A stretch of DNA of 64,000 nucleotides, taken from NCBI GenBank assembly GCA_964436545.1, contig CAYTCJ010000005.1:12713-76712 (forward strand), written 5' to 3'. Shown here in pieces: positions 12,719 through 43,248 of the stretch (the first letter of the stretch is position 1; the number at the start of each line of letters is the position of its first letter). The notes beneath the pieces were generated by a model. The model ran no database searches, was not told the DNA's origin, and saw only the letters and a list, made by a program, of their open reading frames with translations. Position numbers and translations under genes: made by a program. Source of the stretch: an uncultured Candidatus Saccharibacteria bacterium (lineage in GTDB: Bacteria; Patescibacteriota; Doudnabacteria; UBA920).

Positions 12719-13690
12719 ATGAAAAAAGCCATTATAAGTGGAATTACCGGACAGGACGGGTCGTATTTGGCGGAACTACTTCTCTCTAAGGGGTACGAAG
12801 TGCATGGGATTATGCGCCGACTATCTTCGTTTGCCTCTACTCGGATTGACCATTTAATTAATCATAATTCTAATTTGCATACTTACCACGGAGATTTAAC
12901 CGATAACGCCTCCATTGCCGGTTTGATTGCCGATGTCAAGCCCGATGAATTTTATAATTTGGGCGCCATGTCGCATGTTAAAGTGTCTTTTGAGATTCCT
13001 CAATATACTTTGGAAACCAATGCAGTGGGAGTTTTAAATGTTTTGGAAGCGATTAGAAAGTTTTCGCCACACACTAAATTTTATCAAGCTTCCAGCTCGG
13101 AAATGTTTGGCGTGCCGGGCGTGCCGGCGCCTTTTAATGAAACCACACCCATGATGCCTCAAAGTCCCTATGGGGTGGCAAAATTAGCCGCCTATCATTT
13201 AACAAGGCAATACCGAGATGGGTATGGTCTTTTTGCGACTACCGGGATTTTGTTTAATCACGAAAGTCCCAGACGGGGAGGCACTTTTGTAACTAAAAAA
13301 GTTTCAAAAGCAGTGGCCAGAATTAAACAAGGATTACAAAAAGAATTGGTGTTGGGTAATTTAGATGCCAAACGCGATTGGGGTTGGTCTCCGGAATTTG
13401 TGGAGGCGATTTATTTAATTATGCAACATTCTAAGCCCGATGTCTTTGTTGTCGCCACCGGAGAAACGCACACGATTAAAGAGTTTGTGGAAGAAGCGTT
13501 TAAGTATGTAGGCCTTAATTGGCAAGATTATATTAAGATCGATGAAAAATATAAAAGGCCCAACGAAGTGCCTTTGCTACTCGGCGATGCTACTAAAACC
13601 AAGCAAGTTTTAGGTTGGGAACCCAAAATGAAATTTAATGAGATTGTCCACGCCATGGTGGATTATGATTTACAACACTTAAATGATTAG
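12719..13690 (+). CDS. gmd: GDP-mannose 4,6-dehydratase, second paralogue
   Basis: [59 protein letters not shown]. Confidence 0.8.
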   Translation: MKKAIISGITGQDGSYLAELLLSKGYEVHGIMRRLSSFASTRIDHLINHNSNLHTYHGDLTDNASIAGLIADVKPDEFYNLGAMSHVKVSFEIPQYTLETNAVGVLNVLEAIRKFSPHTKFYQASSSEMFGVPGVPAPFNETTPMMPQSPYGVAKLAAYHLTRQYRDGYGLFATTGILFNHESPRRGGTFVTKKVSKAVARIKQGLQKELVLGNLDAKRDWGWSPEFVEAIYLIMQHSKPDVFVVATGETHTIKEFVEEAFKYVGLNWQDYIKIDEKYKRPNEVPLLLGDATKTKQVLGWEPKMKFNEIVHAMVDYDLQHLND

Positions 13691-14072
13691 TCAAGTTAAA
13701 TTTGGTAAACAGGTTTTGGCGCGGGTGTATGATTTTGCCGATTTGTCGTTTGGAACTTTTCCTGTTACGTCTCCTCAGGAGTCTTTGCAGGTGTTACTCA
13801 TGAAAAGGCAAAAAGGGCATGTAGTAACTAAACACATGCACAAAAAAATTAAGAAGTTTACTGAGCAACCCGCAGAGGCTTTAGTGGTAATTAAAGGTTT
13901 ATTAACCGCTAAACTTTTTAATCGACAAGGAAAATTTGTAAAACAGGTTAAAGTTAAGCCCGGGCAATGTTTGTTAATTATCGACGGAGCCCATGAGGTG
14001 ACTATTTCCCAAACAGCATGCGTGTTTGCCTTTAAGGATGGCCCTTTTGTGGAAGATAAAATTATTTTTTAA
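13683..14072 (+). CDS. Hypothetical small protein, possibly cupin-like
   Basis: A 129-aa ORF running from the gmd stop to the methyltransferase start. It has no clear motif, although the H-x-H (KHMHKK) is cupin-like. Coding is supported only by its length and context. Confidence 0.3.
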   Translation: MISQVKFGKQVLARVYDFADLSFGTFPVTSPQESLQVLLMKRQKGHVVTKHMHKKIKKFTEQPAEALVVIKGLLTAKLFNRQGKFVKQVKVKPGQCLLIIDGAHEVTISQTACVFAFKDGPFVEDKIIF

Positions 14073-14079
14073 TAATTCT

Positions 14080-15291
14080 ATGGTAGTGAATGCTTGTCAT
14101 TTATGCGGTTCGTCACAGCTAAAGGAAGTCCTAGATTTAGGCTTTCATCCTTTGGCGGATTTTTTTATGAAGCCTGAGCAATTGGTGGCCATGGAACGCC
14201 GTTATCCTTTGTCGGTTTTATTATGCGAGGTATGCGGACATGGGATGAATAGTTTTATTGTGCCGGCTAAAGAGCGGTATCAGGAAAACGATTATTCTTA
14301 CGATTCGGGGAATTCCAAAGTTTCCATCCAGCATTTTAATGACATGGCAAAAGAGGTATGGGCCAGAGCGGGTTTAAAACCAGGGGGTTTAGTGGTTGAT
14401 ATTGGCAGTAATATTGGTACGTTGTTAAGTGCTTTTAAAAATTTGGGAGCTGAGGTGCAAGGAGTTGATCCGGCGCATAATATTGCGGTGTTAGCTGAGC
14501 AAAAAGGGATTCCGACGATTAATGATTTTTTTAATAAAGTCTCAGTTGATAAAATTTTAAAAAAAGGACAGGCAAAAGTTATTACAATAACTAACGCTTT
14601 TAACCATATTTCGCCTTTACACGAATTTATGAGCAATGTCGTGGCGCTCTTAGATAAAGAGGGTACTTTTGTGATTGAATTGCCGTATTTCTTGGAGATT
14701 ATTCGTAAAAAGCATTTTGATGTAATTTATTTGGAGCATGTGTCTTATGTTGCCATTAAACCCTTAGTCTCATTCTTTAAAAAGTACGGGCTACAGATTA
14801 CTCATGTTGAAGAAAATAATTACATGAGCGGATCCATAAGAATTTTTGTGGGCTTTGGTCAGGAAAGCGATTTGGTCAAAAAACAAATTATTTTGGAAGA
14901 AGCATTGGGACTATATGATTTTTCAGTTTGGAAAAAATTTGCCGAGGAGGTAAGAAATTGCAAAATTAATTTGTTGAACGAACTGGTGAAAGCTCGTCAG
15001 GCAAAGGGTAAAATTGTGGCAATTGGCGCCGCAGCTAAAGGGAATACCCTGTTAAATTATTGTGGGATAGATAGGACTTTAATAGATTTTGCCACCGACG
15101 CTTCACCGTTAAAAATTGGTAAATTTACGCCTGGGTCGCATTTGCCCATTTTGGCCGACGAAGCCATAGACGAGAGTGTAACTCACGCCCTCATTCTGGC
15201 TTGGAATATTGCTGAATTGTTAAAAAGTAAAATTTCTCCCAAACATCCCAATTTAAAATTTATTACCCCGCATGTGGTGGAATCCCGTTAG
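14080..15291 (+). CDS. Zn-ribbon plus class I SAM-dependent C-methyltransferase (TylCIII/NovU-like NDP-hexose C- or O-methyltransferase family)
   Basis: N-terminal CHLCGSS...LLCEVCGH (the Methyltransf_13-type putative Zn-binding domain), a Rossmann VVDIGSNIGTL, and a C-terminal C-methyltransferase-type domain. The start was moved to the ATG at 14080 in the same frame as the track ORF, removing the overlap with the upstream gene. Confidence 0.6.
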   Translation: MVVNACHLCGSSQLKEVLDLGFHPLADFFMKPEQLVAMERRYPLSVLLCEVCGHGMNSFIVPAKERYQENDYSYDSGNSKVSIQHFNDMAKEVWARAGLKPGGLVVDIGSNIGTLLSAFKNLGAEVQGVDPAHNIAVLAEQKGIPTINDFFNKVSVDKILKKGQAKVITITNAFNHISPLHEFMSNVVALLDKEGTFVIELPYFLEIIRKKHFDVIYLEHVSYVAIKPLVSFFKKYGLQITHVEENNYMSGSIRIFVGFGQESDLVKKQIILEEALGLYDFSVWKKFAEEVRNCKINLLNELVKARQAKGKIVAIGAAAKGNTLLNYCGIDRTLIDFATDASPLKIGKFTPGSHLPILADEAIDESVTHALILAWNIAELLKSKISPKHPNLKFITPHVVESR

Positions 15292-15397
15292 AAGCCGAGA
15301 TCGTGGATTTATTTATGAAACTTATTAATTTATTAAAATTTTATAATCATTAATTTTAAAGCAATCGTGATTTCGATCGCGATCTGCTTCTAACAGG

Positions 15398-15847
15398 ATG
15401 AAAAGAACCAAGCGTAAAATTAATTTTAAAGATCGCCGTGGGACCATAACGGATATTTTTGTGAATGAACCTTATGAGCATTGTGTGATTATTTTTTCTA
15501 ATAAAGGGGCGGTAAGAGGCAGTCATTATCATAAAAAATCAGTGCAGGCCGATTTTATGCTGTTTGGAAAAATGATGGCTTATTCCAGAAAAGCCGGCAG
15601 TAAAAAAATTATTAAGACTTTACTTACCCCGAACGATGTGACACATTGGGAAAAAGGAGAAGCACACCAGTTTATTGCTTTAGAGAAGTGTGCATTTTTA
15701 AGTTTTGTGAATGGTCCTAGGGGGGGAGATAAGTACGAAACCGACACTTACCGGTTAAAAATTCCGCTTCACGAACAGTTAAAACAAGGTATTACAGATT
15801 GGACTTTGTTGGCAGAGGGAAAATTTCACCAAACCGTAATTAAATAA
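15398..15847 (+). CDS. WxcM/FdtA-like cupin (candidate NDP-4-keto-6-deoxyhexose 3,4-ketoisomerase)
   Basis: GTITDIFVNEPYEHCVIIFSNKGAVRGSHYHKKSVQADFMLFGKM carries the RGxHYHxxxxQ core of the FdtA/QdtA/WxcM C-terminal domain. Confidence 0.45.
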   Translation: MKRTKRKINFKDRRGTITDIFVNEPYEHCVIIFSNKGAVRGSHYHKKSVQADFMLFGKMMAYSRKAGSKKIIKTLLTPNDVTHWEKGEAHQFIALEKCAFLSFVNGPRGGDKYETDTYRLKIPLHEQLKQGITDWTLLAEGKFHQTVIK

Positions 15848-15856
15848 AGTTGTTGT

Positions 15857-16546
15857 ATGAAAATTGCTATAATTGGGGCTAAAGGTTATGTGGGAACCGC
15901 TTTATGCAAAGCTGTTAATGCTTTAAAAACGCATCAAGTTTTGGAAATAACTCGGGATAATTATTTAGCTCACCAAAATGAAGATTACGATATAGTAATA
16001 AATTCAGCTATGCCCTCGGGTAGGTTTTGGGCAAAAAATCACCCCCAAAAAGATTTTGTGGAAACCGTACAAAAAACCGCGGATTTGGTGTATGGTTGGA
16101 AGTATAAAAAATTTATTCAGATTAGCACGGTTTCGGCTCGTTGCCAATTAGATACAGTGTATGGTCGGCACAAGCTGTCTGCGGAAAAACTTTGCGAGTT
16201 TGGAGAAAATTTAATTGTTCGGTTGGGTGCCTTATATAGTAGCAATATGCAAAAAGGGGCCCTGGCCGATATGTTAGCCGGCAAAACTATTTATATGTCA
16301 GGGGAGAGTCGTTATTCTTTTATTGCTATAGAAGTTTGTTGTCAATGGATTGCTACTCATTTGGACAGAACCGGCATAGTAGAGTTAGGCGGAAAGCACG
16401 CTATAACCTTAAAGGCTGTGGCGGATTATTTAGGCAAGCCGGTAAAGTTTGAAGGTCCCGTGAGTCATTTTGATATTGAAACCACCGAAGCAGACTTGCC
16501 AGAAGCCAAAACAGTATTAAATTTTTTAAAAGCTAATTATGTTTAA
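15857..16546 (+). CDS. Short NAD(P)-binding SDR-like sugar reductase or epimerase
   Basis: [17 protein letters not shown] Rossmann and YGRHK (YxxxK). At 229 aa it is shorter than canonical RmlD. Confidence 0.45.
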
Positions 16547-17483
16547 TTTGAAAACAGCCAAAATTTTATTAACTGGCGGACACGGGTTTTTAGGTGAGAA
16601 GGTTTACCAAGAGTTATTGTCTCATGGGGCTAAAGCAAAAAATATTATTCGTCCCAGATCAAAAGAACTAGATTTACGAGTGGTTGCCAATTGTCAAAAA
16701 GCGGTTAAAGGTAAAGATTTAGTTATTCATTTAGCAGCTAATGTCGGGGGAATTGGGTATAATCAAGCCCATCCGGGCAAATTATTTTACGATAATGCCA
16801 TAATGGGCATTCAGTTAATTGAAGAAGCTCGGAAAGCAAAAGTTAAAAAATTTGTGCAAGTGGGTACGGTTTGCGCCTATCCTAAATTTCCTCCGCATAT
16901 TCCGTTTAAAGAAGCCGATTTATGGGCAGGCTATCCGGAAGAAACCAATGCGCCTTATGGGCTCGCAAAAAAAATGTTATTAGCTCAACTCCAAGCTTAT
17001 AGACAAGAGTATAACTTTAATGGAATTTATTTGTTGCCGGTTAATTTATACGGACCGGGCGATAATTTTAATCCCCAGTCTTCTCATGTTATTCCGGCTT
17101 TAATCAAAAAATTTGTTGATGCGGTAAAATTAGGAAAATCCACAGTAGAGGTATGGGGAACTGGTAAGCCGACTCGAGAATTTTTATACGTTGATGATGC
17201 AGCTCAAGGAATAGTTTTAGCGACTTTAAAATATAATAAACCAGAACCGGTAAATTTGGGTACAAATTTTGAAATCAGCATTAAAGACTTGGTTGGAATG
17301 ATTGCAAAATTAACAGGTTTTCAAGGCAAAATAGTTTGGGATAAAACTAAACCTAACGGCCAGCCTCGAAGAAAATTAGATGTAAGCAGAGCTAAGAAAG
17401 AGTTTGGTTTTGTGGCTCAAGTAGGTTTTCAGCAAGGACTTAAGCAAACCATTGAATGGTATAAGCAAATGAACAAAAGTTAA
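16539..17483 (+). CDS. fcl: GDP-L-fucose synthase (GDP-4-keto-6-deoxy-D-mannose 3,5-epimerase/4-reductase)
   Basis: [83 protein letters not shown], the classic Fcl/WcaG motifs. Confidence 0.8.
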
Positions 17484-17566
17484 AGTAATGACAAAATTGA
17501 AAAAAATGAACTGGAAAATTAATTTTTGTTCATTTCCGTCGCTTTTGTCATTTATGTCAATTTTTT

Positions 17567-18361
17567 ATGGTGAGTATTATTACCTCTTTATATAGAACAG
17601 ATAAATATTTACAGCAGTTTGAACAACGCTTAAAGGTTTTTGCGCATGCTATGCAATCCCACCACATTGATTTTGAGTTTATTGCGATTGCCAATGATGC
17701 GACGGAAAAAGAACAAGCTTTTGGTAAAAGGCTGGCGAGTGAGCCTTGGTTTAAGTTTGAAAATGTTGGTCGGGAATCCGTTTTCGCCACATTTAACCGT
17801 GCGTTTGCAATGGCCAAAGGGGATATTTTAGGTTGGTGGAACGATGATGATGTAAGGTATCCCGAGGCAATAGTGGAAGCTGTAGAGCATTTTAAGCAGG
17901 GAGCGGATTTAGTGTATTTTCCTTTTATAATTAAAAGGTATGTTTTTGGTTTGCCAATTTGGAGTCAAAAGATCGACAAGCAAATACCGGAATTTAATAA
18001 GGAAACTCAAACACAGTTTAAAACCGGAATGTTATGCGGGCCGTTTTTTTTGTTTACTAAGGCCTTTTATAAAAAGGTGGGTCCGTTTGACGAGCAATTT
18101 AAAATTTCCGGAGATTTGGATTTTTGCATTCGATCAGCTCAGGCTGGGGGCAAGTTTATTAAAGCCAAAAATTTGGGGGGTGAGTTTCGGGTAGATGGTA
18201 CGGGTTTGTCTGCGGGTGCCAATCCCAGACGCACAGCGGAGAATAATGTAATTTATACTCGGCATCATGTATGGAAAAAGCTTGAACTTGCGGAAGATTT
18301 AATTATTATGCATTACCGAGTACATCATTTATTACACCAAGGTAAATATACGAAAATATAA
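17567..18361 (+). CDS. GT-A fold (GT2-like) glycosyltransferase
   Basis: MVSIITSLYRTDKYL...FEFIAIANDATEK...GWWNDDDVRYP, with a DxD-like acidic motif. Confidence 0.5.
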   Translation: MVSIITSLYRTDKYLQQFEQRLKVFAHAMQSHHIDFEFIAIANDATEKEQAFGKRLASEPWFKFENVGRESVFATFNRAFAMAKGDILGWWNDDDVRYPEAIVEAVEHFKQGADLVYFPFIIKRYVFGLPIWSQKIDKQIPEFNKETQTQFKTGMLCGPFFLFTKAFYKKVGPFDEQFKISGDLDFCIRSAQAGGKFIKAKNLGGEFRVDGTGLSAGANPRRTAENNVIYTRHHVWKKLELAEDLIIMHYRVHHLLHQGKYTKI

Positions 18362-18363
18362 TT

Positions 18364-19923
18364 ATGGAAAATAATTCATTATCTTACAAAACTTTTAAAA
18401 ATGTGAGTTATAGTTTTATAGGTTTTGCTGTGCCGATAATTTTTTCCGTGTTCATTACTCCGGTGATTGTGCACAAATTGGGGGTGGCGGAATACGGGGT
18501 GCTGATTTTAACCAACACCATTATGGGATTTTTGGGCTTATTGGATTTAGGTTTAACCTCCGGCGTGATAAAAAAAATTTGTGAGTATCAAGTCTTAAAG
18601 AAAATGGAAAATTTGCAACTCATGCTGAGTACTGCCAATAGTTTATTTTGGCTGATTGGCATAATTAATTTTACCGTATTTTTTATACTAGGTAAGTTTT
18701 TTTTAAGCCGGTTTAATATTATTGCCAACGAAAATTTATTTTTAGTTTTTATTCTGGTAGGTTTGACTTCCTTTTTAACCGCCATAAATTCCATTTATAC
18801 CAGCATTCCACAAGCTTTGCAAAGGTTTGATATTGTCAATAAAATCAATTTAATTCAATTGTTAGTTTATAATCTTGGCGCCTTAATTTTAGCTTTACTC
18901 GGGTTTCAGTTAAAAGCCATTTTAGGCTTAAATTTAATTACCATAATTGGGTTGAGCTTGGCTTACCGGTTTTTTAGCTATAAAATTTTACCGGAGGTAA
19001 AGCTAAAATTAGCTTGGAGTTTTTTAGAATTAAAGGAGCTTTATGGATTTGGTCTGTTTACCGCCATTGCAAATATTGGTATGGGCGCGGTTAATCAATT
19101 TGACCGATTATTAATTCCAATTTTTTTAGGACCCACTCAACTTACTTATTACAGCTTACCCGGTAACGTAGCCCAAAAAACCACCACAGTGGTAGGGAGT
19201 TTAGGCGGAACTTTTTTTCCTTTAGCCAATGAGTTAGCCACTAAAGGGGAGGTGGTTAGGTTAGGAATAATTTTTCGAAGAGTTATTGGGAATCTAGCTG
19301 TATTGGCAATGGCCACAACAGTGAGTATTATTTTGTTTGGTAAAAAGATTTTGTGGTTTTGGCTGGGTAAAGATTTTGCCTTATTGGGTACCAATATTTT
19401 ATATCTTTTAGCCATTACTTATTTTTTACTTTCTTTGTTTGGCGTAATATACAATTTTTTAATTGGCCTTAGCAGGCAAAAAGCCGTAGCCAAATGGTCG
19501 CTGTTAATGGCTGGTATTAATTTACTGTTTTTGTTAATATTATTAAAGCCTTTGGGGATTTTGGGTGCAGCCATTGCTTATTTGGCTTCCGCTTTACCCA
19601 TTGTTATTCTGTTTTATTGGTTGGAAAAAACGGTTTTTTTGGCCAAAAATATTGGGAGTTTTTATGGGCGGTTATTGCTAAGATTGGGTTTTACCAGCAT
19701 AGTTTATGGATTGATAGTAGGGTCAACTTTATGGCAATGGACTAATAGTTTTACAGAGTTGGTAATTTTTGGCCCTCTGGCAGTTGGAAGTTTTATAGTT
19801 ATCTATTGGGCGTTAGGGTATATGGATACGGAAGATGAAAAATTGTTTAGAAGTTTTAGTTTGAAAATTTTACAAAAATTTAAATTAGCCAAAATCAGTA
19901 CCAATGAAGATTTTAGAAATTAA
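18364..19923 (+). CDS. wzx: Wzx-like MOP-superfamily oligosaccharide flippase
   Basis: 519 aa with about 12-14 TM helices, the polysaccharide-biosynthesis-protein topology, and its position inside a glycan locus. Confidence 0.6.
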   Translation: MENNSLSYKTFKNVSYSFIGFAVPIIFSVFITPVIVHKLGVAEYGVLILTNTIMGFLGLLDLGLTSGVIKKICEYQVLKKMENLQLMLSTANSLFWLIGIINFTVFFILGKFFLSRFNIIANENLFLVFILVGLTSFLTAINSIYTSIPQALQRFDIVNKINLIQLLVYNLGALILALLGFQLKAILGLNLITIIGLSLAYRFFSYKILPEVKLKLAWSFLELKELYGFGLFTAIANIGMGAVNQFDRLLIPIFLGPTQLTYYSLPGNVAQKTTTVVGSLGGTFFPLANELATKGEVVRLGIIFRRVIGNLAVLAMATTVSIILFGKKILWFWLGKDFALLGTNILYLLAITYFLLSLFGVIYNFLIGLSRQKAVAKWSLLMAGINLLFLLILLKPLGILGAAIAYLASALPIVILFYWLEKTVFLAKNIGSFYGRLLLRLGFTSIVYGLIVGSTLWQWTNSFTELVIFGPLAVGSFIVIYWALGYMDTEDEKLFRSFSLKILQKFKLAKISTNEDFRN

Positions 19924-20530
19924 AAATTTAGCCCTTCCGGGCGTTAAAGTCATAAAATTTGCCAGATTTGCGGATGATCGTGGGTATTTTACGGAAACTT
20001 TCAGGCAAAGTGATGTCGTAAATAATTCGCAATGGGATTTTTTACAAGCATACAACTTCGTGCAAACCAACGAAAGTTTTTCTAAAAAAAATGTAGTGAA
20101 AGGGTTGCACTTTCAATGGGAGCCTCCACTTGGCAAGTTGCTGAGAACTATAAACGGTCATATGGTGGATATGATCTTAGATATCCGGAAGCAATCTTCC
20201 ACTTTTGGTAAAATAATTTTGTACGACTTGCCCTCCAGTAAGACCCAAGATTATGGTGAATGGATTTGGTTGCCTCCCGGTGTGGCGCATGGTAGCTTCT
20301 TTTTAGAAGATAGTTTTAATGAATATTTTTTTACTGCCGATTATAACCCAAAAGGGGAAGCGGGGATATCGCCTTTAACTGAAGATTTAGATTGGTCTTT
20401 AGCCGACGTTAAGTTAAAAGAACAGTTTGAGCAATTGAAACAAGGTTCAATATTAATTAGTGGTAAAGATAGAGCCGGAATGTCTTTGACTGATTGGCAA
20501 AAAGACGAAAGAGCAGAAAATTTCCAATAA
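19904..20530 (+). CDS. RmlC-like NDP-4-keto-6-deoxyhexose 3,5-epimerase (cupin)
   Basis: KFARFADDRGYFTETFRQ, GLHFQWEPPLGKLLRTINGHMVDMILDIRKQSSTFGKI, WLPPGVAHGSF, the RmlC family motifs. Confidence 0.65.
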   Translation: MKILEIKNLALPGVKVIKFARFADDRGYFTETFRQSDVVNNSQWDFLQAYNFVQTNESFSKKNVVKGLHFQWEPPLGKLLRTINGHMVDMILDIRKQSSTFGKIILYDLPSSKTQDYGEWIWLPPGVAHGSFFLEDSFNEYFFTADYNPKGEAGISPLTEDLDWSLADVKLKEQFEQLKQGSILISGKDRAGMSLTDWQKDERAENFQ

Positions 20531-20556
20531 TTATTAAAGCGGTAAATTTTAACGGG

Positions 20557-21786
20557 ATGTATAAACACAATACTTATTGTCGGATTTGCAAATCTCAAAA
20601 TTTGGTAAAATTTTTAGATTTGGGCAATCAACCTTTAGCCAATTCATTTTTAAAAACTAAGAGTCAATTCGCCCATGAACCAAAGTATCCTTTGGCGGTT
20701 TATTTTTGCGAGGATTGTAATTTGGCTCAACTGTTAGATGTGGTGAGCAAGGAAGAAATGTTTTCCGATTATATTTATTTTACTTCCGGGATGCCTAAAA
20801 TTTCCAACCATTTTAAAGCTTACGCCGAGGATATTATGGCTCGTTTTTTAAAGGCCGGAGAATTGGTGGTGGAAATCGCCAGTAACGATGGTATCTTGTT
20901 GAAATTTTTTCAGGATGCGGGTTTCAGAGCCTTGGGTGTGGACCCGGCAGTAAACGTGGTAAAGACTGCGGAAAAATTGGGTGTTAAGACGATTGTGGAT
21001 TTTTTTAGCGAACAGGTAGCAGAATCCATTGTGCAGACACAGGGTAAAGCTAAGGCAATTTTAGCTAACAACGTTGTAGCTCATATAGACGATCATCATG
21101 ACCTGGCCCTCGGAGTGGCAAAGCTTTTGGCAGAGGATGGGGTTTTTGTTTTGGAAGCGCCTTATTTGGTGGATATGTTTGAAAATTTAACTTATGACAC
21201 GATTTACCACGAGCATTTGTCTTTTTTGGCAGTCAGGCCCTTAAAAAAATTATTTGCACAGTTTGGTTTAGAAATTTTTGATGTTGAGGTAAATGCGGTT
21301 CAAGGACAATCTTTACGAGTTTTTATTGGACATTCAGGCAAGCACAGTCTTTCGCCCAATGTACAAAAATATATGGAGTTAGAGCAGTCCATGGGCCTTG
21401 ATCAATTTGCAACCTATCAAAAATTAGCATTAAGAGTGGAGTCGCAAAAACAACAATTGGTTAAATTACTGAACGATTTAAAAGCACAAGGAAAAAAAAT
21501 TTCAGCTTATGGGGCGCCAGCGAAAGGCAATACCATGCTTAATTATTGCCAAATCGGTACAGAAATTTTAGAGTATGTTTTGGAAGATTTACCCGCTAAG
21601 CAAGGTTTGTATACCCCCGGCATGCATATCCCGACTGTTGATGCCGGATATGCGCATAGTCATGAGCCGGATTATTACTTAATGCTTGCTTGGAATTATG
21701 AGAAAGCAATTTTAGAAAAAGAAAAAACATATTTAAGTAAGGGCGGAAAGTTTATTATTCCAGTGGAGGGTATAAGATTAATTTAA
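20557..21786 (+). CDS. Zn-ribbon plus class I SAM C-methyltransferase, second paralogue
   Basis: YCRICKSQ...YFCEDCNLAQL Zn ribbon, VVEIASNDGILL Rossmann, and a C-terminal C-methyltransferase-type domain. The start was set at the ATG at 20557, downstream of the upstream stop. Confidence 0.6.
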   Translation: MYKHNTYCRICKSQNLVKFLDLGNQPLANSFLKTKSQFAHEPKYPLAVYFCEDCNLAQLLDVVSKEEMFSDYIYFTSGMPKISNHFKAYAEDIMARFLKAGELVVEIASNDGILLKFFQDAGFRALGVDPAVNVVKTAEKLGVKTIVDFFSEQVAESIVQTQGKAKAILANNVVAHIDDHHDLALGVAKLLAEDGVFVLEAPYLVDMFENLTYDTIYHEHLSFLAVRPLKKLFAQFGLEIFDVEVNAVQGQSLRVFIGHSGKHSLSPNVQKYMELEQSMGLDQFATYQKLALRVESQKQQLVKLLNDLKAQGKKISAYGAPAKGNTMLNYCQIGTEILEYVLEDLPAKQGLYTPGMHIPTVDAGYAHSHEPDYYLMLAWNYEKAILEKEKTYLSKGGKFIIPVEGIRLI

Positions 21787-21790
21787 AAAA

Positions 21791-22873
21791 ATGACAAAGC
21801 TTGCAAAACTTAAAACCCAAAAAATCCCCGCAAAAAATATTTTAGTAACCGGTGGCGCAGGTTTTATTGGCTCAAATTTTATTCGGTATTTATATCACCG
21901 TTACCCCACGTATCGAATTTTTAATTATGATTTGCTAACCTATGCAGGCAATTTAGATAATTTGCGTGATGTGGTTAAATTAGAATCGAATAAAACTAAG
22001 GCTAATAAACGATATTTTTTTATTCAGGGTGATATTGGAGACGAAAAGCTTTTGGATAAATTATTTGCTATGTATAAGTTCGATATTGTAGTAAATTTTG
22101 CTGCCGAAAGTCACGTGGACCGTTCCATTATTAGCTCGCAAAATTTTATTAAGGTTAATGTAATGGGTGTGCATATTTTGATTGACTTAGCCAAAAAATA
22201 TCAGACACCACGGTTTGTTCATATTTCTACCGATGAAATTTACGGGGATATTGGCAAAGGTCAAAGCACAGAAAAATCACATTTAAAGCCTTCTAATCCT
22301 TATGCTGCTTCTAAAGCGGCGGCTGATTTTTTAGTTCAGTCTTATATTCGTACGCACAATTTTCCCGCGGTTATTATGCGGGGGTCAAATAATTTTGGTT
22401 TTTTTCAATATCCTGAAAAGTTGATTCCGCTTGCGATTACTAATCTTTTGGAAGGCCGGTTAGTACCGATTCATGGCGGGGGACATCATGTAAGAACGTG
22501 GCTTCATGTGGAAGATTTTTGCAGTGCTATAGATTTAGCAATGCATCGGGCTAAAAATGGAAGCATTTATAATGTTGCGGGATTGCCAAAAAAGAACCGA
22601 GATATTATTAAGGAAATTTGTCGTATGCTTGGTAAAGATTTTAATACTCACGTTCGGTTTGTATCCGATCGTCCGGGTGCGGATTTCCGCTATGCCCCCA
22701 CGGCTTCAAAATTAGAAAAAGAATTAGGTTGGCAACCCGTAAAGAGTATTAACACTAATTTGCAGGAAATTGTAAAATGGTATAGAGAGAATCATACTTG
22801 GTGGGAAAAAATAAAAAAGCAAAAAGAATTTTTGGACCATTATCATAAACAGTCACGCGCTTTGTATTATTAG
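21791..22873 (+). CDS. rfbB: dTDP-glucose 4,6-dehydratase
   Basis: ILVTGGAGFIGSNFIRYL, NFAAESHVDRSI, YAASKAAADFLVQSY (YxxxK). Confidence 0.75.
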   Translation: MTKLAKLKTQKIPAKNILVTGGAGFIGSNFIRYLYHRYPTYRIFNYDLLTYAGNLDNLRDVVKLESNKTKANKRYFFIQGDIGDEKLLDKLFAMYKFDIVVNFAAESHVDRSIISSQNFIKVNVMGVHILIDLAKKYQTPRFVHISTDEIYGDIGKGQSTEKSHLKPSNPYAASKAAADFLVQSYIRTHNFPAVIMRGSNNFGFFQYPEKLIPLAITNLLEGRLVPIHGGGHHVRTWLHVEDFCSAIDLAMHRAKNGSIYNVAGLPKKNRDIIKEICRMLGKDFNTHVRFVSDRPGADFRYAPTASKLEKELGWQPVKSINTNLQEIVKWYRENHTWWEKIKKQKEFLDHYHKQSRALYY

Positions 22874-22891
22874 CTTCATAAATCGGGTTTT

Positions 22892-23992
22892 ATGGTTGTA
22901 TCAAAAAAATTTTGGAAAAATCGAAAAGTTTTAATAACCGGCGCCAGTGGTTTTGTGGGTTCTAAATTAAGTTTGGCTCTATTTAATTTAGGTGCTCAAG
23001 TAATTGCGGTAGTCCGCCCAGGCACGCAGAAAAGTTCTTTATCCGGCATAAGTGCCAAAATTAAAATTACTGCTTGCAATCTTTCAGATATGGAGCAGGT
23101 TAAAAAACTTTTTCTAAATCAGACTATAGACACTGTCTTTCATCTCGCCGCTTCTCCCATAGTAAGTCAAGTAGCCATGCAACCTCATTTGAGTGTGGAA
23201 AATAACGTATTAAGTACTTTAAATATCTTGGAGGTTTGTCGGCTGAATAAAGTTAAACGAGTGCTGTTAGCATCTTCGGACAAGGTTTATGGTGAACATG
23301 CCAAAACAGAATTAGAATCTTTACCGTTTAAAGAAAGTTATGCTTTAAGAGGTTTAGATATATATAGCGCCTCTAAAGTTTGCGCTGATACTTTAGCACA
23401 AGCTTACGCCTATCAGTATAGAATGTTAGTGGCGGTTTTAAGGTGTGGTAATATTTATGGACCCGGGGATGTGAATTTTACTAGGCTGATTCCCAGAACC
23501 ATTATGCTCCTTTTGTCGGGACGCGCACCGGTAATTAAAGCCGGTCATGAGAAAGTTTTGCGGGAATATTTGTACATAGATGATGCCGTCAGCGCCTATA
23601 TTTTTTTAGCGGAAAAATTAGAAACTTATTACGGATTGAATTTACAGAATATGCCTAAGGTCGGCAAACAAACTTATGGTTGGTTGGCGTTTAATGTGGG
23701 CTCTTACAATCGAAGCCAAACGAAAAAGTTATCAAGTTGTACTAACATTCAAAACGTTACACAAATTATAAAGCTTTTATCTAAGAAAATTAGGTTTATT
23801 CAGCCGGTTGTAGTTTTAAAACCCCCCAAGTATATTGAAATACCCAATGAATATTTAGATTCCACAAAAATATTACAACTGGGTTTTAAAACCAGAGTTA
23901 CTTTGGAGCAGGGGATTGAAAATTCGGTGGTTTGGTATAAAGATAATTTTCAATCATTAAAATCGAAATTTTTGAAACAGGTTTCAGCCTAA
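22892..23992 (+). CDS. CDP-glucose 4,6-dehydratase-like extended SDR (RfbG-like)
   Basis: The N-terminus KKFWKNRKVLITGASGFVGSKLSLALFNLGAQV mirrors the RfbG N-terminus (FWKGKRVFVTGHTGFKGSWLSLWL). YSASK catalytic dyad. Confidence 0.5.
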   Translation: MVVSKKFWKNRKVLITGASGFVGSKLSLALFNLGAQVIAVVRPGTQKSSLSGISAKIKITACNLSDMEQVKKLFLNQTIDTVFHLAASPIVSQVAMQPHLSVENNVLSTLNILEVCRLNKVKRVLLASSDKVYGEHAKTELESLPFKESYALRGLDIYSASKVCADTLAQAYAYQYRMLVAVLRCGNIYGPGDVNFTRLIPRTIMLLLSGRAPVIKAGHEKVLREYLYIDDAVSAYIFLAEKLETYYGLNLQNMPKVGKQTYGWLAFNVGSYNRSQTKKLSSCTNIQNVTQIIKLLSKKIRFIQPVVVLKPPKYIEIPNEYLDSTKILQLGFKTRVTLEQGIENSVVWYKDNFQSLKSKFLKQVSA

Positions 23993-24007
23993 AGTTTTTT
24001 AAAGTAT

Positions 24008-24868
24008 ATGAAAAAGGTTTTAATTTTGGGAAGTGAAGGTCAGTTAGGGTTCGATAGTGCCCAGCTTTTTAAAAATGAGTATCTTGTTGCTCAGTATAAT
24101 CATAGAGAAGCGGATATTACCAATTGGCAAAATTTAAATAGTATAGTTAGCCTCGAAAAGCCGGATTTTATAATTAACGCCACAGCCTATAATAAAGTGG
24201 AAGTGGCGGAAACCGATAGCGATACGGCTTTTGCGGTGAATGCGAAAGGTGTGGAAAATTTAGTCAACGTCAGTAAAGCGGTCGGTGCTATTTTGGTACA
24301 TGTAAGTACAGACTATGTATTTGATGGGAGTAAAGATTTTTTTGTGGAAAATGATATACCCCATCCTTTAAACGTTTATGGCAAATCCAAATTAGATGGG
24401 GAGAAGTATGTTCAAGAAAGCGGTTTAAATTATTACCTCATTAGGACGAGTTCGGTGTTTGGTGCCAAACCAAGCAGTCAGAAACAAAATTTTGTAGATA
24501 AAATGATTAGCTTGGCGAAAGCCGGACAGACATTAAAAGTAGTAGATGATCAAATTATGAGTCCCACTTATTCTTTAGACTTAGCTTTTAAAATTAAAGA
24601 ATTGATAGCAAAGCCTGCGCCGTTTGGGTTATACCATATCACAAATCAGGGGAGCTGTAGTTGGTATGAGTTGGCAAAAAAAAGTTTGGAAATAATGCAG
24701 ATTAATGCTACAATAGAGCCAATTAATTCTAAAGATTCAGGGAGTAAAGTGAACAGACCTAAAAGAAGCGTGCTAAAGAATTTAGCTTTAGAGCAGGTAG
24801 GTATTAAACCTATGCCTTTATGGCAAGACGCCCTCTTAAGGTATTTAAAAGAAAAGTATAATGTATGA
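24008..24868 (+). CDS. rfbD: dTDP-4-dehydrorhamnose reductase
   Basis: MKKVLILGSEGQLG, HVSTDYVFDG, YGKSKLDGE, RTSSVFG, the RmlD motifs. Confidence 0.75.
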   Translation: MKKVLILGSEGQLGFDSAQLFKNEYLVAQYNHREADITNWQNLNSIVSLEKPDFIINATAYNKVEVAETDSDTAFAVNAKGVENLVNVSKAVGAILVHVSTDYVFDGSKDFFVENDIPHPLNVYGKSKLDGEKYVQESGLNYYLIRTSSVFGAKPSSQKQNFVDKMISLAKAGQTLKVVDDQIMSPTYSLDLAFKIKELIAKPAPFGLYHITNQGSCSWYELAKKSLEIMQINATIEPINSKDSGSKVNRPKRSVLKNLALEQVGIKPMPLWQDALLRYLKEKYNV

Positions 24869-25674
24869 TTTATCCTTTACTAAAAGCAATGGGGAGTGAT
24901 TATTCCATTGGTGTGGTGACTTACGTAAAACGGTTTGAAACTTATTTCAAACCGTTGGTTTTATCTTTGGAAAAATATTTTCCCGGAGTAGAAAAGAATT
25001 ATGTATTAAACGGATTTTATGATCCGGTTATTCAAGAGCAGTATGTAAAAGAGGCTAAGGAATTTTTAAAAGGCACTTCGGCTTCTAATGTTATAGCGTA
25101 TAACGAAAGCCAACCTTTGGCACGCTGTTTTAATCAGTTAATTTTACATTCCTCCGGAAAAAAAGTTTTAATTTTAAATGACGATTTGTTGGTTAGGGCT
25201 TGGTTTCGTCCGTGTTTGGAGATGCAAATGTGGCCGTTTGAGAATGGGGTGGTGAATAATACTTGGAGCATTAGTTGGCTTTCCAAGGAAACGGTTAGAA
25301 AAGTGGGCTGGTTTGACGAAAGATTTCCAGCCATTGGTAATGAAGACGGCGATTATGGGATGCGAATTGCTTTACAAAAAGGTCAAAAAGCAATGCAAGT
25401 TTTGCACCAACATAATATTTACTGCTTCGGCATTACCAATGTAGTTGCGGGCAATACGGATCCGGGTTGGAAAAAAGATTCTGCTATAATTGGCAGTGGT
25501 TATGCGCAAGCCAATAAAGATTATTTTGATAAGAAATGGGAAACGAGTAAAAATTTTTTAGAAAACTCAGTTTGTTTACAAGGAGTGTATTATCGAATCC
25601 GTCCCGGTTTTGAAACCCCGCAATTTTACGAATACAAGTTATTAGATAATCCTTTAAAATCCCCGGTAAAATAG
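24865..25674 (+). CDS. Putative GT-A-like glycosyltransferase; function uncertain
   Basis: KKVLILNDDLLV and GNEDGDYGMR acidic motifs; no other recognisable signature. Confidence 0.35.
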   Translation: MIYPLLKAMGSDYSIGVVTYVKRFETYFKPLVLSLEKYFPGVEKNYVLNGFYDPVIQEQYVKEAKEFLKGTSASNVIAYNESQPLARCFNQLILHSSGKKVLILNDDLLVRAWFRPCLEMQMWPFENGVVNNTWSISWLSKETVRKVGWFDERFPAIGNEDGDYGMRIALQKGQKAMQVLHQHNIYCFGITNVVAGNTDPGWKKDSAIIGSGYAQANKDYFDKKWETSKNFLENSVCLQGVYYRIRPGFETPQFYEYKLLDNPLKSPVK

Positions 25675-25680
25675 TTGAAA

Positions 25681-25716
25681 GCCCCGCCCTTTGCTGACAA
25701 AGAGCGGGGCTTTAAA
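25681..25716 (+). terminator. Rho-independent terminator
   Basis: gccccgccctttg / caaagagcggggc stem followed by tttaaatttt. Confidence 0.55.
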
Positions 25717-25745
25717 TTTTCAGTTAGAAATGGTATTATGGGATT

Positions 25746-26894
25746 ATGTCAAAAACGTTTATTTACCCAAGAACACAGTGTCCGGTTTGTGAAACCACCC
25801 AGCTTCCAGGAGCGATTTTACCCCATAAACATTTACCTTTTCCGCTTTTGCCGGTGTGCGTAGACACGCCTCAAAGCCAAGATGAATTTGCACCTTTTAG
25901 TATTACCATTTGCGAAAAGTGTGGACTGATTCAATTAGTGGATGTGGCTGATCCGGTAGTTTTATATAAAATTTTTCATTCCGATGGTATTGGTAAAGTT
26001 TGGGAAGAGCATTATGAAAAATTTTCTCGTCTTATATTCAAACATCATACTGGGGGAAGTCTGCTTGAGATTGGCTCCGGTCAGGGTAAGTTGATGAAAA
26101 AGTTATTAGAGCATTACCAGACCGGTATGGAAGTGATTGATCCGCAATACGAAGGCCCGAAAGAAAACGTGGTAGTGCATCCTACTTTGCTCAATGCTGA
26201 ATTTGCGTTACAGAATAAAAATAAGTTTTCTGCCGTGGTTTCTTCTCATACATTAGAACATTTTATAGACTTCAATGATTATTTTAGAGATGCTTGGCAG
26301 GTGTTAACCGCCGGCGGATTGCTGTTTACTTCGGTGCCAAATCAGGAGTCAAATTTTGCCAAAGGTTATGGTAATCAATTGAATTTTGAACATCCATCTA
26401 TTTGTACCAATGCCCATTGGCAATATTTACATTATAAAAATGGGTTTGAAATCAAGGAGCTTAGTTTTTTTAAAGATCATTCTGTGCAAATTGTAGCCAA
26501 AAAAGTGGAAAAAGCTATGGAGTTTAATTTAGATGTCAAAGAATTGTCCTTTGCTATTTTAAAACAGTATGAACATAGCATTCAGAATCGGATAAAAATT
26601 ATTTTAGATCAGGCAAAGCCTAACAAGCAGAATTGGATTTTTGGTGCCAGTAATTTTACTCAGCCTTTGTTTGTGTATGGGCTTGATGAAAAAATTTTTA
26701 CCGGGGTTATGGATAACAGTCCACTCAAACACAACAAGCGTCTTTACGGTACATCGTTAATCTGCCGAAAACCCGAAGAGGTGCTTAAAGAGTCGGAAAA
26801 TCTGAGAATATTTTTAAATATCGGACAATATAACATTGAAGTTCAAGAGCAACTATTGGCCATAAATAAAACTCTCGAATTAATTATGCTGTAA
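25746..26894 (+). CDS. Zn-ribbon plus class I SAM methyltransferase, third paralogue of the 14080 and 20557 family
   Basis: CPVCETTQL...CEKCGLIQL Zn ribbon, LLEIGSGQGKL Rossmann, and a C-terminal domain. Confidence 0.55.
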   Translation: MSKTFIYPRTQCPVCETTQLPGAILPHKHLPFPLLPVCVDTPQSQDEFAPFSITICEKCGLIQLVDVADPVVLYKIFHSDGIGKVWEEHYEKFSRLIFKHHTGGSLLEIGSGQGKLMKKLLEHYQTGMEVIDPQYEGPKENVVVHPTLLNAEFALQNKNKFSAVVSSHTLEHFIDFNDYFRDAWQVLTAGGLLFTSVPNQESNFAKGYGNQLNFEHPSICTNAHWQYLHYKNGFEIKELSFFKDHSVQIVAKKVEKAMEFNLDVKELSFAILKQYEHSIQNRIKIILDQAKPNKQNWIFGASNFTQPLFVYGLDEKIFTGVMDNSPLKHNKRLYGTSLICRKPEEVLKESENLRIFLNIGQYNIEVQEQLLAINKTLELIML

Positions 26895-26895
26895 T

Positions 26896-27624
26896 ATGGT
26901 TAACTTTAAAGTTTTAATTACCACTTCTGGGATAGGTTCTCGTTTAGGGGAACTAACTAAGCATACAAATAAGGCATTAATAAAAGTCGCGGGCAAACCG
27001 GCGATTGATTATATTATAGAAAGTTATCCAAAAGATGTGGAGTTTGTGGTCACTATTGGCTATTTAAAAGAACAGGTTAGGGATTATTTAAAAAGTCGAT
27101 TTCCCAGTCATAAATTTACTTTTGCTGAAGTAGATAAGTTTGATGGACTCGGCACGAGTATGGGTTATTCTATACTTCAAGCCAGACAATATTTAACTTG
27201 CCCGTTTATTATTCAATGTAATGATACTTTGGTGTTTGAACCGATTTTAGATCCCAATCTGGAAAATTGGAATGCCGGCACCTTTGGTTCATCTGCTGTA
27301 TCTTATACTTCTTTTAAAATAGTTGGAGATCGCATTTCCAAAATAGCGGATAAAGGCGCCGTGGATTATGATTTGTTGCATATTGGCTTTGTCGGGATAA
27401 AAGATCATGAATTGTTTTGGGAATGTTTGGCAGAACTCTATCATAAAAATCCTAATGATAGCGTGTTAAACGATACCCGCACTATGAATGTTATGATGGA
27501 CAGGGGTGCTACTTTTAAACCCGTGGAATATAAGTTATGGTTGGATATCGGCAATCCGCATGCTCTCAAAGAGACAGAAAAATATTTACTTGCCCATCCT
27601 AATTTACTAACACCTAACACCTAA
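26896..27624 (+). CDS. Stand-alone sugar-phosphate nucleotidyltransferase (MurU/LicC-like, non-RmlA type)
   Basis: KVLITTSGIGSRLGELTKHTNKALIKVAGKPAIDYIIE is an NTP_transferase fold with a noncanonical G-loop. It is paralogous to the N-terminal domain of the next gene. Confidence 0.6.
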   Translation: MVNFKVLITTSGIGSRLGELTKHTNKALIKVAGKPAIDYIIESYPKDVEFVVTIGYLKEQVRDYLKSRFPSHKFTFAEVDKFDGLGTSMGYSILQARQYLTCPFIIQCNDTLVFEPILDPNLENWNAGTFGSSAVSYTSFKIVGDRISKIADKGAVDYDLLHIGFVGIKDHELFWECLAELYHKNPNDSVLNDTRTMNVMMDRGATFKPVEYKLWLDIGNPHALKETEKYLLAHPNLLTPNT

Positions 27625-27642
27625 TCACTAATACCTATTCTT

Positions 27643-29229: not shown

Positions 29230-29230
29230 T

Positions 29231-30226: not shown

Positions 30227-30260
30227 TAGAGTATATCGCAAATTTGTTGGCGAGTTGATA

Positions 30261-42510: not shown

Positions 42511-43248
42511 ATGCTACGAAAAATAATCAAAAAACTTTATAGGATAATTATCGCCTTAATTAGCAGTTTATTTTGGTATACGAGGGATTGGTTTAAATAT
42601 AAAAATTTGTTAAATCAAGGGGGTAAAGAAGAAAATTTAAAGGTATTTCCGCAAATTTTTGACAGTGCTCCGGGAAGTCATACTTTTGATAAACATTATG
42701 TATATATGGACAGGTGGGCATTTAAACAAATTTTAAAACATAAGCCCTCGGTCCATATTGATGTGGGATCTTCCATTCGGTTTTTATCTATGGTATCGGC
42801 CATTACTCAGCTTAAGTTTGTAGATATTCGTCCCATTAAAACCGATTTTGATAATTTTGAATGCATTACCGGAAGTATTTTAAAGATGCCTTTTGAGAGC
42901 GAATCAGTAGTGTCTTTGTCGTGTTTGCATGTGGCTGAACATATTGGTTTGGGCAGATACGGGGATCCTTTAGATATTTTAGGTACGCAAAAAGCTTGTA
43001 GTGAATTGGCCAGAGTTTTAGCCCCGGGTGGACGTTTATATTTTGCTTTACCGATTGGGAAATCGGCAATATATTTTAATGCTCATCGGGTGCATAGTCC
43101 GGAGATAATTTTAACATATTTTAAAGATTTGCAACTCCAGAGTTTTTCGGTAATTACTGATCAAGGTCATTTTATGGAAAGAGCTAATATTGAAGATTAC
43201 AAGGACGCCACTTATGCTTGCGAGTGTTTTGAATTTACAAAAGATTAG
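42511..43248 (+). CDS. Class I SAM-dependent methyltransferase-like protein (DUF268-like)
   Basis: HIDVGSSIRFL...GSILKMPFESESVVSLSCLHVAEHIGLGRYGDPLD...LAPGGRLYFALPIG. Confidence 0.4.
   Translation: MLRKIIKKLYRIIIALISSLFWYTRDWFKYKNLLNQGGKEENLKVFPQIFDSAPGSHTFDKHYVYMDRWAFKQILKHKPSVHIDVGSSIRFLSMVSAITQLKFVDIRPIKTDFDNFECITGSILKMPFESESVVSLSCLHVAEHIGLGRYGDPLDILGTQKACSELARVLAPGGRLYFALPIGKSAIYFNAHRVHSPEIILTYFKDLQLQSFSVITDQGHFMERANIEDYKDATYACECFEFTKD

Follow-up and report, generated by a model that had tools for sequence, protein, structure and literature searches.

A surface-glycan locus of a Candidatus Saccharibacteria bacterium holds three methyltransferases of the TcaB9/MtmC/KijD1 fold in putative nucleotide-sugar cassettes

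We analyzed a 64,000-nucleotide stretch of DNA (hereafter the window) from an uncultured Candidatus Saccharibacteria bacterium, focusing on positions 14080-26894, where three genes encode methyltransferases that we call MT1 (14080..15291), MT2 (20557..21786) and MT3 (25746..26894). It makes up the front half of a Wzx-type locus for a surface glycan that spans ~36 kb (9693-46152) and has all of its genes on the + strand, with short or overlapping junctions between them. The window has ~36% GC and a strongly positive GC skew. The locus contains a single Wzx-type flippase (18364..19923; PF13440, 53.3 bits) and a single initiating polyprenyl glycosylphosphotransferase (44842..46152; PF02397, 202 bits; TIGR03025, 308.1 bits against a cut-off of 295.55), together with about eight glycosyltransferases, a NUDIX protein and, at 9693, a GDP-mannose dehydratase (Gmd, 531 bits) that is additional to the one discussed below. 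With two more methyltransferases downstream, of the DUF268 and FkbM families, the locus has five methyltransferase open reading frames (ORFs), all on the + strand where a first-pass annotation of the sequence had placed them. The host is probably a monoderm bacterium of the candidate phyla radiation (CPR), so that 'O-antigen' is the wrong frame for this locus. The explanation that best accounts for the whole, and that we consider likely, is that the region contains three nucleotide-sugar tailoring cassettes, independent of one another and each centred on one methyltransferase of the TcaB9/MtmC/KijD1 fold, and that the glycan probably carries methyl-branched and methylated sugars. Domain membership, fold, residue conservation, and the gene neighbourhoods with their conservation in other genomes are the observations from which this explanation is built.

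MT1 and MT2 have the domain content of canonical nucleoside-diphosphate (NDP)-hexose C-methyltransferases. MT1 passes the Pfam cut-offs for PF08421 (57.7 bits; cut-off 31.3), PF13489 (51.5 bits) and PF08484 (121 bits; cut-off 23.5), as does MT2 (82.5, 66.3 and 178.5 bits), in agreement with the zinc-ribbon/Rossmann/C-terminal-domain architecture that the first-pass annotation had assigned to them. NCBIfam holds no specific model for MT1, MT2 or MT3, which gave only weak UbiG/BioC matches there. Both gene models are matched by database proteins that are 100% identical and share the same start (P0095, 403 aa, for MT1; P0215, 409 aa, for MT2). Among solved structures, MT1 matches MtmC of the mithramycin pathway (4rv9, labelled 'D-mycarose 3-C-methyltransferase' in the PDB) over its full length with 35% identity (E 2.2e-72), and MT2 matches it with 43% identity (E 6e-102); TcaB9 (3ndi; 36% identity to MT2) and KijD1 (5t64) are matched by both proteins over their whole length at E 1e-50 to 1e-75. 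For residue comparisons, TcaB9 and MtmC sequences were rebuilt from printed alignments and then aligned with the window proteins, and five TcaB9 pocket residues were taken from the titles of mutant PDB entries (4e31, Y76F; 4e2w, H181N; 4e2x, Y222F; 4e2y, E224Q; 4e2z, H225N). The four zinc cysteines are kept in MT1 (C6, C9, C49, C52) and in MT2 (C8, C11, C51, C54), and so are all five pocket residues, numbered Y72, H176, Y217, E219 and H220 in both. MT1 and MT2 are thus like MtmC, TcaB9 and KijD1 in their three domains, zinc cysteines, motif I and pocket, at 32-43% identity. Motif I of the S-adenosylmethionine (SAM) site reads VVDIGSNIG in MT1 and VVEIASNDG in MT2. The latter has Ala where most methyltransferases have Gly, but it is the majority form among the best 120 MT2 orthologues and therefore does not indicate decay. 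Together with LLEIGSGQG in MT3, none of the three motifs is degenerate and the orthologues are conserved, which rules out a pseudogene reading.

The three proteins had been called paralogous, which holds in the family sense only: MT2 has 43% identity to MtmC but 37% to MT1, while the identity of MT3 to MT1, MT2 and the actinomycete enzymes alike is 18-22%. MT1, MT2 and MT3 fall into separate orthologous groups, each with its own conserved cassette, and the identities mark MT1 and MT2 as old family members, not recent duplicates. The MycE-like architecture also suggested for them is unsupported by any comparison we made; MycE is an O-methyltransferase without the zinc-ribbon three-domain architecture. 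The locus contains no WbdD-like kinase-methyltransferase, and no comparison supports a relationship to WbdD. The claim that branched-chain or poly-O-methylated deoxysugars are rare in surface glycans outside actinomycetes was overstated, since more than 6,500 database proteins match MT1 and more than 7,900 match MT2 at E <= 1e-20 (both numbers being lower bounds), and surface-glycan precedents have been published, namely the virenose of Coxiella (PMC3539893) and the 3-C-methylmannose of H. pylori (PMC12961483). All named proteins among the best 120 matches of MT1 and of MT2 come from CPR bacteria, the close homologues being named from Parcubacteria, Kaiserbacteria, Taylorbacteria, Magasanikbacteria and Uhrbacteria. 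By such counts, C-methyltransferases of this fold are abundant outside actinomycetes.

MT1 lies in a cassette (12719-17483) whose other genes point to a GDP-linked sugar. Two genes upstream of it, Gmd2 (12719..13690), a GDP-mannose 4,6-dehydratase, scores 430.7 bits against the TIGR01472 cut-off of 415, and between them lies a 129-aa small cupin (13683..14072) that is WbuC/DUF6016-like (TIGR04366, 33.4 bits, below the cut-off of 42). Downstream of MT1 follow a 149-aa cupin-like protein that is a possible epimerase (15398..15847); a 229-aa short-chain dehydrogenase/reductase (SDR) and candidate ketoreductase (15857..16546) with GxxGxxG and YxxxK motifs (Pfam Epimerase, 32.3 bits); and a GDP-L-fucose-synthase-like SDR of the 3,5-epimerase/4-reductase type (16539..17483; NF047922, 263.6 bits, below the cut-off of 500). 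This arrangement recurs in other genomes. A Parcubacteria locus (L027) carries the same string of genes, encoding proteins of 324, 129, 402, 149 and 230 aa, with a DUF268 methyltransferase two genes later. The order Gmd-like, 129-aa, methyltransferase, ~130-149-aa and 230-aa SDR is found also in locus L028, which adds a 313-aa orthologue of the GDP-L-fucose-synthase-like SDR. In both loci, a 324-aa Gmd2 orthologue lies upstream of the MT1 orthologue, a 129/130-aa cupin with a weak DUF6016 match directly precedes it, and the 230-aa SDR keeps its position. Orthologues of the 149-aa protein stand directly 3' of the MT1 orthologues in L027, L028 and L031; in the last of these, the MT1 homologue is only 58% identical and is still directly followed by the small cupin-like protein.

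The 149-aa protein had been described as an FdtA/WxcM-like cupin, for which we found no basis: it matched no FdtA/WxcM model in Pfam at E <= 10 and no solved structure of the FdtA type. It carries a cupin-type GxxxxxHxH...H pattern, and a family profile of four sequences (A2) gave weak PDB matches to an archaeal RmlC-like protein (2b9u, E 1.1e-3) and to the cupin domain of CapF (2zkl, E 3.4e-3), making it weakly RmlC/CapF-cupin-like. Its Pfam matches were PF14667 ('Polysacc_synt_C') at 26.1 bits, below the threshold of 28.7, and Cupin_2 at E 0.15; a sub-threshold PF14667 match was also seen for the small cupin-like protein that follows the MT1-type gene in L031 (7218-7610). Profile alignment of its family by hhalign with the RmlC-like and 129-aa cupins of the window was insignificant (probabilities of 2% and 0.6%), and a single-sequence AlphaFold2 (AF2) model was unusable (pLDDT 36.5). 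The idea that the 15398 and 15857 genes represent a split CapF (cupin plus SDR) was unsupported on the SDR side, where the 229-aa protein has no PDB relative by sequence.

Because Gmd2 passes an equivalog cut-off, a GDP-fucose-synthase-like SDR lies downstream, and the gene order is conserved, we assign a GDP-sugar to this cassette, and MT1 probably acts on a GDP-4-keto-6-deoxyhexose. In the proposed route, Gmd2 would make GDP-4-keto-6-deoxy-D-mannose; MT1 would take the proton next to the 4-keto group and methylate the resulting enolate, most likely at C3; epimerisation may then be carried out by the two small cupins and/or the GDP-fucose-synthase-like SDR, with C4 reduced by an SDR. The enzyme set is the same as that of the GDP-L-virenose route proposed, in silico only, for Coxiella burnetii (CBU_0691), which runs through Gmd, a TylCIII-type methyltransferase, and a GDP-4-keto-6-deoxymannose epimerase/reductase (PMC3539893), and from this likeness we infer a GDP-6-deoxy-3-C-methylhexose product of the virenose/evalose type. 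Here, as for the other two cassettes, the substrate, regiochemistry and product are read from sequence. Unlike the Coxiella route, cassette 1 adds two small cupins and the 229-aa SDR that are conserved in CPR bacteria, and its host is a CPR bacterium instead of a Gram-negative with lipopolysaccharide. The characterised actinomycete enzymes of this fold act on dTDP-linked 2,6-dideoxy or 3-amino-2,3,6-trideoxy 4-keto sugars of antibiotics. Compared with those antibiotic pathways, no 2,3-dehydratase was seen in this locus, and MT1 belongs to a cassette that appears to be derived from GDP-mannose.

A second cassette (19904-24868) surrounds MT2. It opens with the RmlC-like cupin (19904..20530) that the first-pass annotation had recognized correctly as such, a putative dTDP-4-keto-6-deoxyhexose epimerase that passes the PF00908 cut-off (124.3 bits against 27) and falls short of the TIGR01221 equivalog cut-off (121.4 bits against 155.75); it can be assigned to the RmlC family, with its exact function not assured. 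MT2 is immediately followed by RmlB, a dTDP-glucose 4,6-dehydratase (21791..22873; TIGR01181, 392.1 bits, cut-off 365.1), an extra SDR that resembles CDP-glucose 4,6-dehydratase (22892-23992), and RmlD, a dTDP-4-dehydrorhamnose reductase (24008..24868; TIGR01214, 276.9 bits, cut-off 224.05). Locus L028 has RmlC, MT2, RmlB and RmlD in the same order without the extra SDR. Since RmlB and RmlD pass their equivalog cut-offs, the RmlC-like gene adjoins MT2, and the order is the same in L028, MT2 probably acts on a dTDP-4-keto-6-deoxyhexose. RmlB would make dTDP-4-keto-6-deoxy-D-glucose, MT2 would C-methylate this product, with C3 favoured and C5 possible, and epimerisation and reduction by the RmlC-like protein and RmlD would then give a dTDP-C-methyl-6-deoxy-L-hexose. 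The preference for C3 comes from the closeness of MT2 to C3 enzymes: its closest solved relatives, MtmC (43%) and TcaB9 (36%), are all C3-methyltransferases, and all five TcaB9 pocket residues are kept. It is quite unlikely, in our view, that MT2 (and possibly MT1) instead methylates C5 as NovU or CloU does, giving a 5-C-methyl (gem-dimethyl, noviose-like) 6-deoxyhexose. NovU methylates C5 in noviose biosynthesis, and the RmlC-like, methyltransferase, RmlB and RmlD genes around MT2 match the gene content of that pathway (NovW/U/T/S), so the context does not fix C3, and no computed result discriminates C3 from C5.

MT3 is a divergent branch of the same fold. It passes the Pfam cut-off for PF13489 (53.9 bits) and misses those for PF08421 (22.4 against 31.3 bits) and PF08484 (17.4 against 23.5 bits); BLASTP aligns it colinearly with MT2 at 22% identity over 358 aa (E 7e-11). 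A search of the PDB with the single sequence reached only E 0.011, so a family profile was needed. The profile (A1, 23 sequences) matched MtmC (4rv9) at E 1.2e-17 across residues 12-367, and an AF2 model built on it was confident (pLDDT 93.4, pTM 0.91). When this model was compared with the PDB by Foldseek, the top 18 matches were MtmC, KijD1 and TcaB9 entries with TM scores of 0.78-0.82 over ~405 columns, and those below them fell to a TM of ~0.36 and covered the Rossmann domain only. The four zinc cysteines of MT3 align with those of TcaB9 and MtmC; they are lost in its most distant relatives (P0091-93). Profile and model together identify MT3 as a true three-domain homologue, in which a class I SAM domain lies between the zinc domain at the N-terminus and the nucleotide-binding domain at the C-terminus. 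The earlier proposal that it shares the architecture of MT1 and MT2 therefore stands for the fold (profile E 1.2e-17, TM 0.8), and the PF08421 and PF08484 thresholds are where it does not. Within motif I (LLEIGSGQG), E108, G110 and G114 are invariant among the A1 sequences, as are H168, E171, H172, the E215-H216 pair and, in the C-terminal domain, G300...D323-N324...K328...R332. MT3 keeps three of the five TcaB9 pocket residues, H172, E215 and H216 (equivalent to H181, E224 and H225), and for this reason we place it as a relative of the fold and not within the characterised C3-methyltransferase group. It resembles MtmC, TcaB9 and KijD1 in fold and in the His/Glu-His set, and differs from them in overall sequence (18-21% identity), in the two missing tyrosines and in its gene partners.

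The MT3 family appears compact. We found 94 homologues, carrying only generic annotations. Among 1.84 billion cluster representatives, 170 relatives were detected at E <= 1e-30, 640 at E <= 1e-10 and 2102 at E <= 1e-3, which corresponds to a family of about 170 clusters at 50% identity, small when set against the more than 6,500 and more than 7,900 matches of MT1 and MT2. A scan with A1 that covered a single genome of each species yielded 21 loci. The closest lies in a Candidatus Saccharibacteria metagenome-assembled genome (MAG; 89% protein identity), and the others belong to DPANN archaea (Micrarchaeota, Woesearchaeota, Pacearchaeota), to further CPR bacteria and to a handful of additional MAGs, so that we regard MT3 as belonging to a CPR/DPANN subfamily. 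Positions 22658-36281 of the window align with a Candidatus Saccharibacteria MAG contig (L006) at 80-90% DNA identity; synteny with this one MAG, together with the taxonomy of the homologues, is the basis on which the host is probably a Saccharibacteria/CPR bacterium. L028 keeps the order MT1-MT2-MT3, followed by FkbM, and has small GIY-YIG and PDDEXK_3 genes as insertions that separate its sugar cassettes (9122-9382, 13989-14246, 18078-18455).

The genes that follow MT3 form a module with it (25746-30226). NT242 (26896..27624) is a sugar-phosphate nucleotidyltransferase by its sub-threshold NCBIfam Arch_glmU match (58.9 bits). NTK528 (27643..29229) joins an N-terminal nucleotidyltransferase, with weak NCBIfam nucleotidyltransferase matches and LicC as its best PDB match (1jyk, E 0.013), to a C-terminal kinase of the APH/choline-kinase type (Pfam APH, 23.6 bits). 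Ald331 (29231..30226) is GatZ/KbaZ-like, of the class II ketose-bisphosphate-aldolase superfamily (PF08013, 27.7 bits; PDB 3txv, E 2.7e-4). In a tblastn census of 28 other loci carrying an MT3 relative, homologues of NT242 were found near it in 23 loci, of NTK528 in 22 and of Ald331 in 14; a small HAD phosphatase (~158 aa, 41-75% identity, for example L029:4784-5260) was present in 20, a phosphomannose-isomerase (PMI)-type cupin in 14, and an SIS protein with a ribulose-phosphate 3-epimerase in five, none of which was among the Ald331 or cupin loci. Fusions join the same functions: NTP_transferase to MT3 in P0017 and P0031 (with sub-threshold NTP_transferase matches) and Ribul_P_3_epim to MT3 in P0034 (204 bits). 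Pfam-annotated contexts of MT3 relatives add transketolase, transaldolase, SIS_2 and inositol-monophosphatase-like genes. The 414-aa ORF after Ald331 was rejected as a conserved partner, having homologues only in the closest relatives. In L028 the kinase-nucleotidyltransferase is split into two ORFs (16466-18050).

These partners fit a route from sugar phosphate through bisphosphate and 1-phosphate to an NDP-sugar, and we infer that the NDP-sugar which these neighbours produce is what MT3 methylates. The GatZ-like protein would reshape a sugar phosphate, NTK528 and NT242 would convert it to the NDP-activated sugar, and MT3 would, most likely, methylate the latter using its His172/Glu215-His216 set. 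The logic recalls NDP-heptose biosynthesis (GmhA, HddA, GmhB, HddC): across loci, the module brings together a sugar-phosphate isomerase, either SIS/SIS_2 or a PMI-type cupin, with a kinase, nucleotidyltransferases and a small HAD phosphatase, and in some cases a transketolase or transaldolase is present too. It differs from that system in that the kinase is of the APH type and fused to a nucleotidyltransferase, not of the GHMP or PfkB type, and in the addition of a GatZ-like protein or ribulose-phosphate 3-epimerase and a methyltransferase. An SDR of the window, SDR291, has heptose 6-epimerase as its best, weak NCBIfam match (67 bits). In place of the single 3,4-ketoisomerase/epimerase plus C-methylation route that the first-pass annotation had envisaged, the region thus appears to hold three separate cassettes, one for GDP-sugars, one for dTDP-sugars and a third, around MT3, for a putative further NDP-sugar.

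In its full form, this interpretation holds that MT3, NTK528, NT242 and the GatZ-like protein define an undescribed CPR/DPANN pathway that makes and methylates a new NDP-hexose or NDP-heptose, and that the locus yields three methyl-branched sugars; taken whole, we regard it as speculative and would not expect every part to hold. Several observations weigh against the three-cassette explanation that we favour. The TcaB9 residue Y222 corresponds to N213 in MT3, a position held by Asn in almost all family members, and nothing in MT3 corresponds to Y76; the conserved MT3 module contains no 4,6-dehydratase, and with both tyrosines lost a keto substrate is therefore not guaranteed. None of the MT3 partners reaches an equivalog cut-off, and the Saccharibacteria version of the module has neither the HAD phosphatase, which the census search did not find in the window or in its close syntenic relatives L006 and L028, nor an SIS or cupin isomerase. 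More distant MT3 relatives (~30% identity) include fusions of a GT2 glycosyltransferase with the methyltransferase. Beyond MT3, the nucleotide specificity of MT1 is read from neighbouring genes only, and no RmlA or ManC nucleotidyltransferase is present in the locus, so that dTDP-glucose and GDP-mannose must be supplied from elsewhere. Finally, MtmC (named TylCIII of S. argillaceus in PMC3539893) is reported to be a 4-ketoreductase as well.

Some of these observations would also fit MT3 being an O- or N-methyltransferase that acts on an NDP-sugar, on a CDP-linked phospho-alcohol (for example, of the CDP-ethanolamine type), or on a glycan during transfer. The absence of two of the five pocket residues and the lack of a dehydratase in the conserved module both speak for such an enzyme, and the GT2 fusions would suit one working on a glycan. 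NTK528 would suit an amino-alcohol substrate, as its N-terminus is nearest to the CTP:phosphocholine cytidylyltransferase LicC and its C-terminus resembles choline kinase. On the other hand, the MT3 family keeps without exception the Glu-His pair and the second His found in C-methyltransferases, the C-terminal nucleotide-binding domain is retained, with a TM of 0.8 over the whole protein, and the partners (SIS, ribulose-phosphate 3-epimerase, GatZ-like, PMI-type cupin, HAD phosphatase) are enzymes of sugar phosphates and not of amino alcohols. We hold this alternative to be a real but minority possibility, and retain NDP-sugar methylation by MT3 as the working interpretation.

The two remaining methyltransferases were also identified as annotated. 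The DUF268-family SAM methyltransferase (42511..43248) scores 49.4 bits against PF03269 (cut-off 25), matching only profile positions 70-127 of 176, and 25.6 bits against PF08241, and has no NCBIfam match. The FkbM-family methyltransferase (43290..44054) passes both PF05050 (67.3 bits, cut-off 22.7) and TIGR01444 (94.8 bits, cut-off 37.7), with a weak 17.7-bit match to V. cholerae RfbT, and FkbM genes occur in L028 and L031 as well. These two enzymes may add further methyl groups, probably O-methyl, to the sugars or to the finished glycan.

The methyltransferases might conceivably serve several unrelated glycans whose genes happen to be neighbours, such as a polysaccharide of the cell wall and an O-glycan on a protein or pilin. 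About eight glycosyltransferases in one locus would be consistent with this, as would the two Wzy_C+TPR proteins upstream and type IV pilus genes downstream, and the cassettes are found separately in other genomes (L027, L031, L032, L002). Yet there is one flippase and one initiating phosphotransferase, the genes share a single strand and are joined closely or overlap, and L028 keeps MT1, MT2 and MT3 in order. We find the notion doubtful and prefer one methylation-heavy glycan. Upstream of the locus, two large Wzy_C (O-antigen-ligase-like) proteins with C-terminal TPR domains flank an LCAT-like/Ig-domain protein (855-3083, 3534-6332, 6337-8475), preceded by an ORF rich in Ser, Thr and Ala that is cut by the start of the window (69-686). 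The Wzy_C+TPR proteins may act as polymerases or else, as protein O-oligosaccharyltransferases, may pass the locus glycan to a glycoprotein. Directly after the glycan locus (46253-51723) lie pilB, pilC and pilM with two small single-pass membrane proteins that are possibly PilN/O-like.

Further sugar genes are interspersed in the locus. The CDP-glucose-4,6-dehydratase-like SDR at 22892-23992, an RfbH-like 3-dehydratase (407 bits, below 423), a split transketolase and another SDR (31567-34168, 34676-35929) hint at a 3,6-dideoxy and possibly two-carbon-branched, yersiniose-like sugar; alternatively, the transketolase may supply sedoheptulose-7-phosphate. The SDR of this group shares 47% identity with the SDR found after a YerE-like thiamine-diphosphate (ThDP) enzyme in Micrarchaeia loci L002 and L007. 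At 38007-38834 lies a nucleotide-sugar dehydrogenase of 275 aa without its C-terminal domain (TIGR03026, 186.7 bits, below 189.8), followed by a UDP-xylose-synthase-like SDR; the same truncated dehydrogenase (262 aa) and SDR stand beside the MT1 homologue in L031 (3511-4299), so the truncation appears conserved. Two adjacent ORFs of 261 and 342 aa (39770-41568) have no Pfam match, not even at E 10, and none of the retrieved loci has a homologue of either. Outside the locus, positions 52682-55296 have 49-55% GC, against ~36% for the window, and encode aspartate-semialdehyde dehydrogenase (asd) and an aspartokinase with ACT domains, along with long spurious antisense ORFs; a tRNA-Arg (52183-52259) and a tRNA-Lys (52397-52472) lie just upstream. 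Its appearance suggests either an island gained by horizontal transfer beside the tRNA genes or a chimeric assembly. Ribosomal RNA was rejected as the cause of the high GC, as there is none at 52-56 kb.

MT1 and MT2 add to a well-known enzyme family, one that is abundant in this lineage. New is a GDP cassette conserved across CPR bacteria; new, too, is the presence of three cassettes together in a reduced-genome episymbiont. Most of all, the novelty lies in the MT3 subfamily, whose pocket is altered and whose kinase-nucleotidyltransferase module is common to CPR bacteria and DPANN archaea. Such cells are attached to hosts, which makes surface chemistry central to their biology, and we know of no surface glycan from a CPR bacterium or DPANN archaeon that has been chemically characterised; a literature search on Saccharibacteria glycans found none. 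Three predictions follow: 3-C-methyl-6-deoxyhexoses made by the Gmd/cupin/MT/cupin/SDR cassette across Patescibacteria, a dTDP-linked C-methyl sugar made alongside the GDP-cassette sugars, and a divergent TcaB9-fold methyltransferase family that works with a kinase-nucleotidyltransferase module. Should they fail, the locus would be simply a well-annotated glycan cluster. For enzymology, MT1 would represent a GDP-sugar-specific branch within a family that has been studied on dTDP sugars only, and MT3 would be a natural active-site variant. On the speculative full reading given above, the locus would make three different methyl-branched sugars, and a two-carbon-branched 3,6-dideoxyhexose might also arise through the RfbH-like dehydratase, the split transketolase and the SDR. 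MT3 would then act, possibly by C-methylation next to a ketose or keto carbonyl, in a pathway common almost exclusively to ultra-small episymbionts, the CPR bacteria and DPANN archaea.

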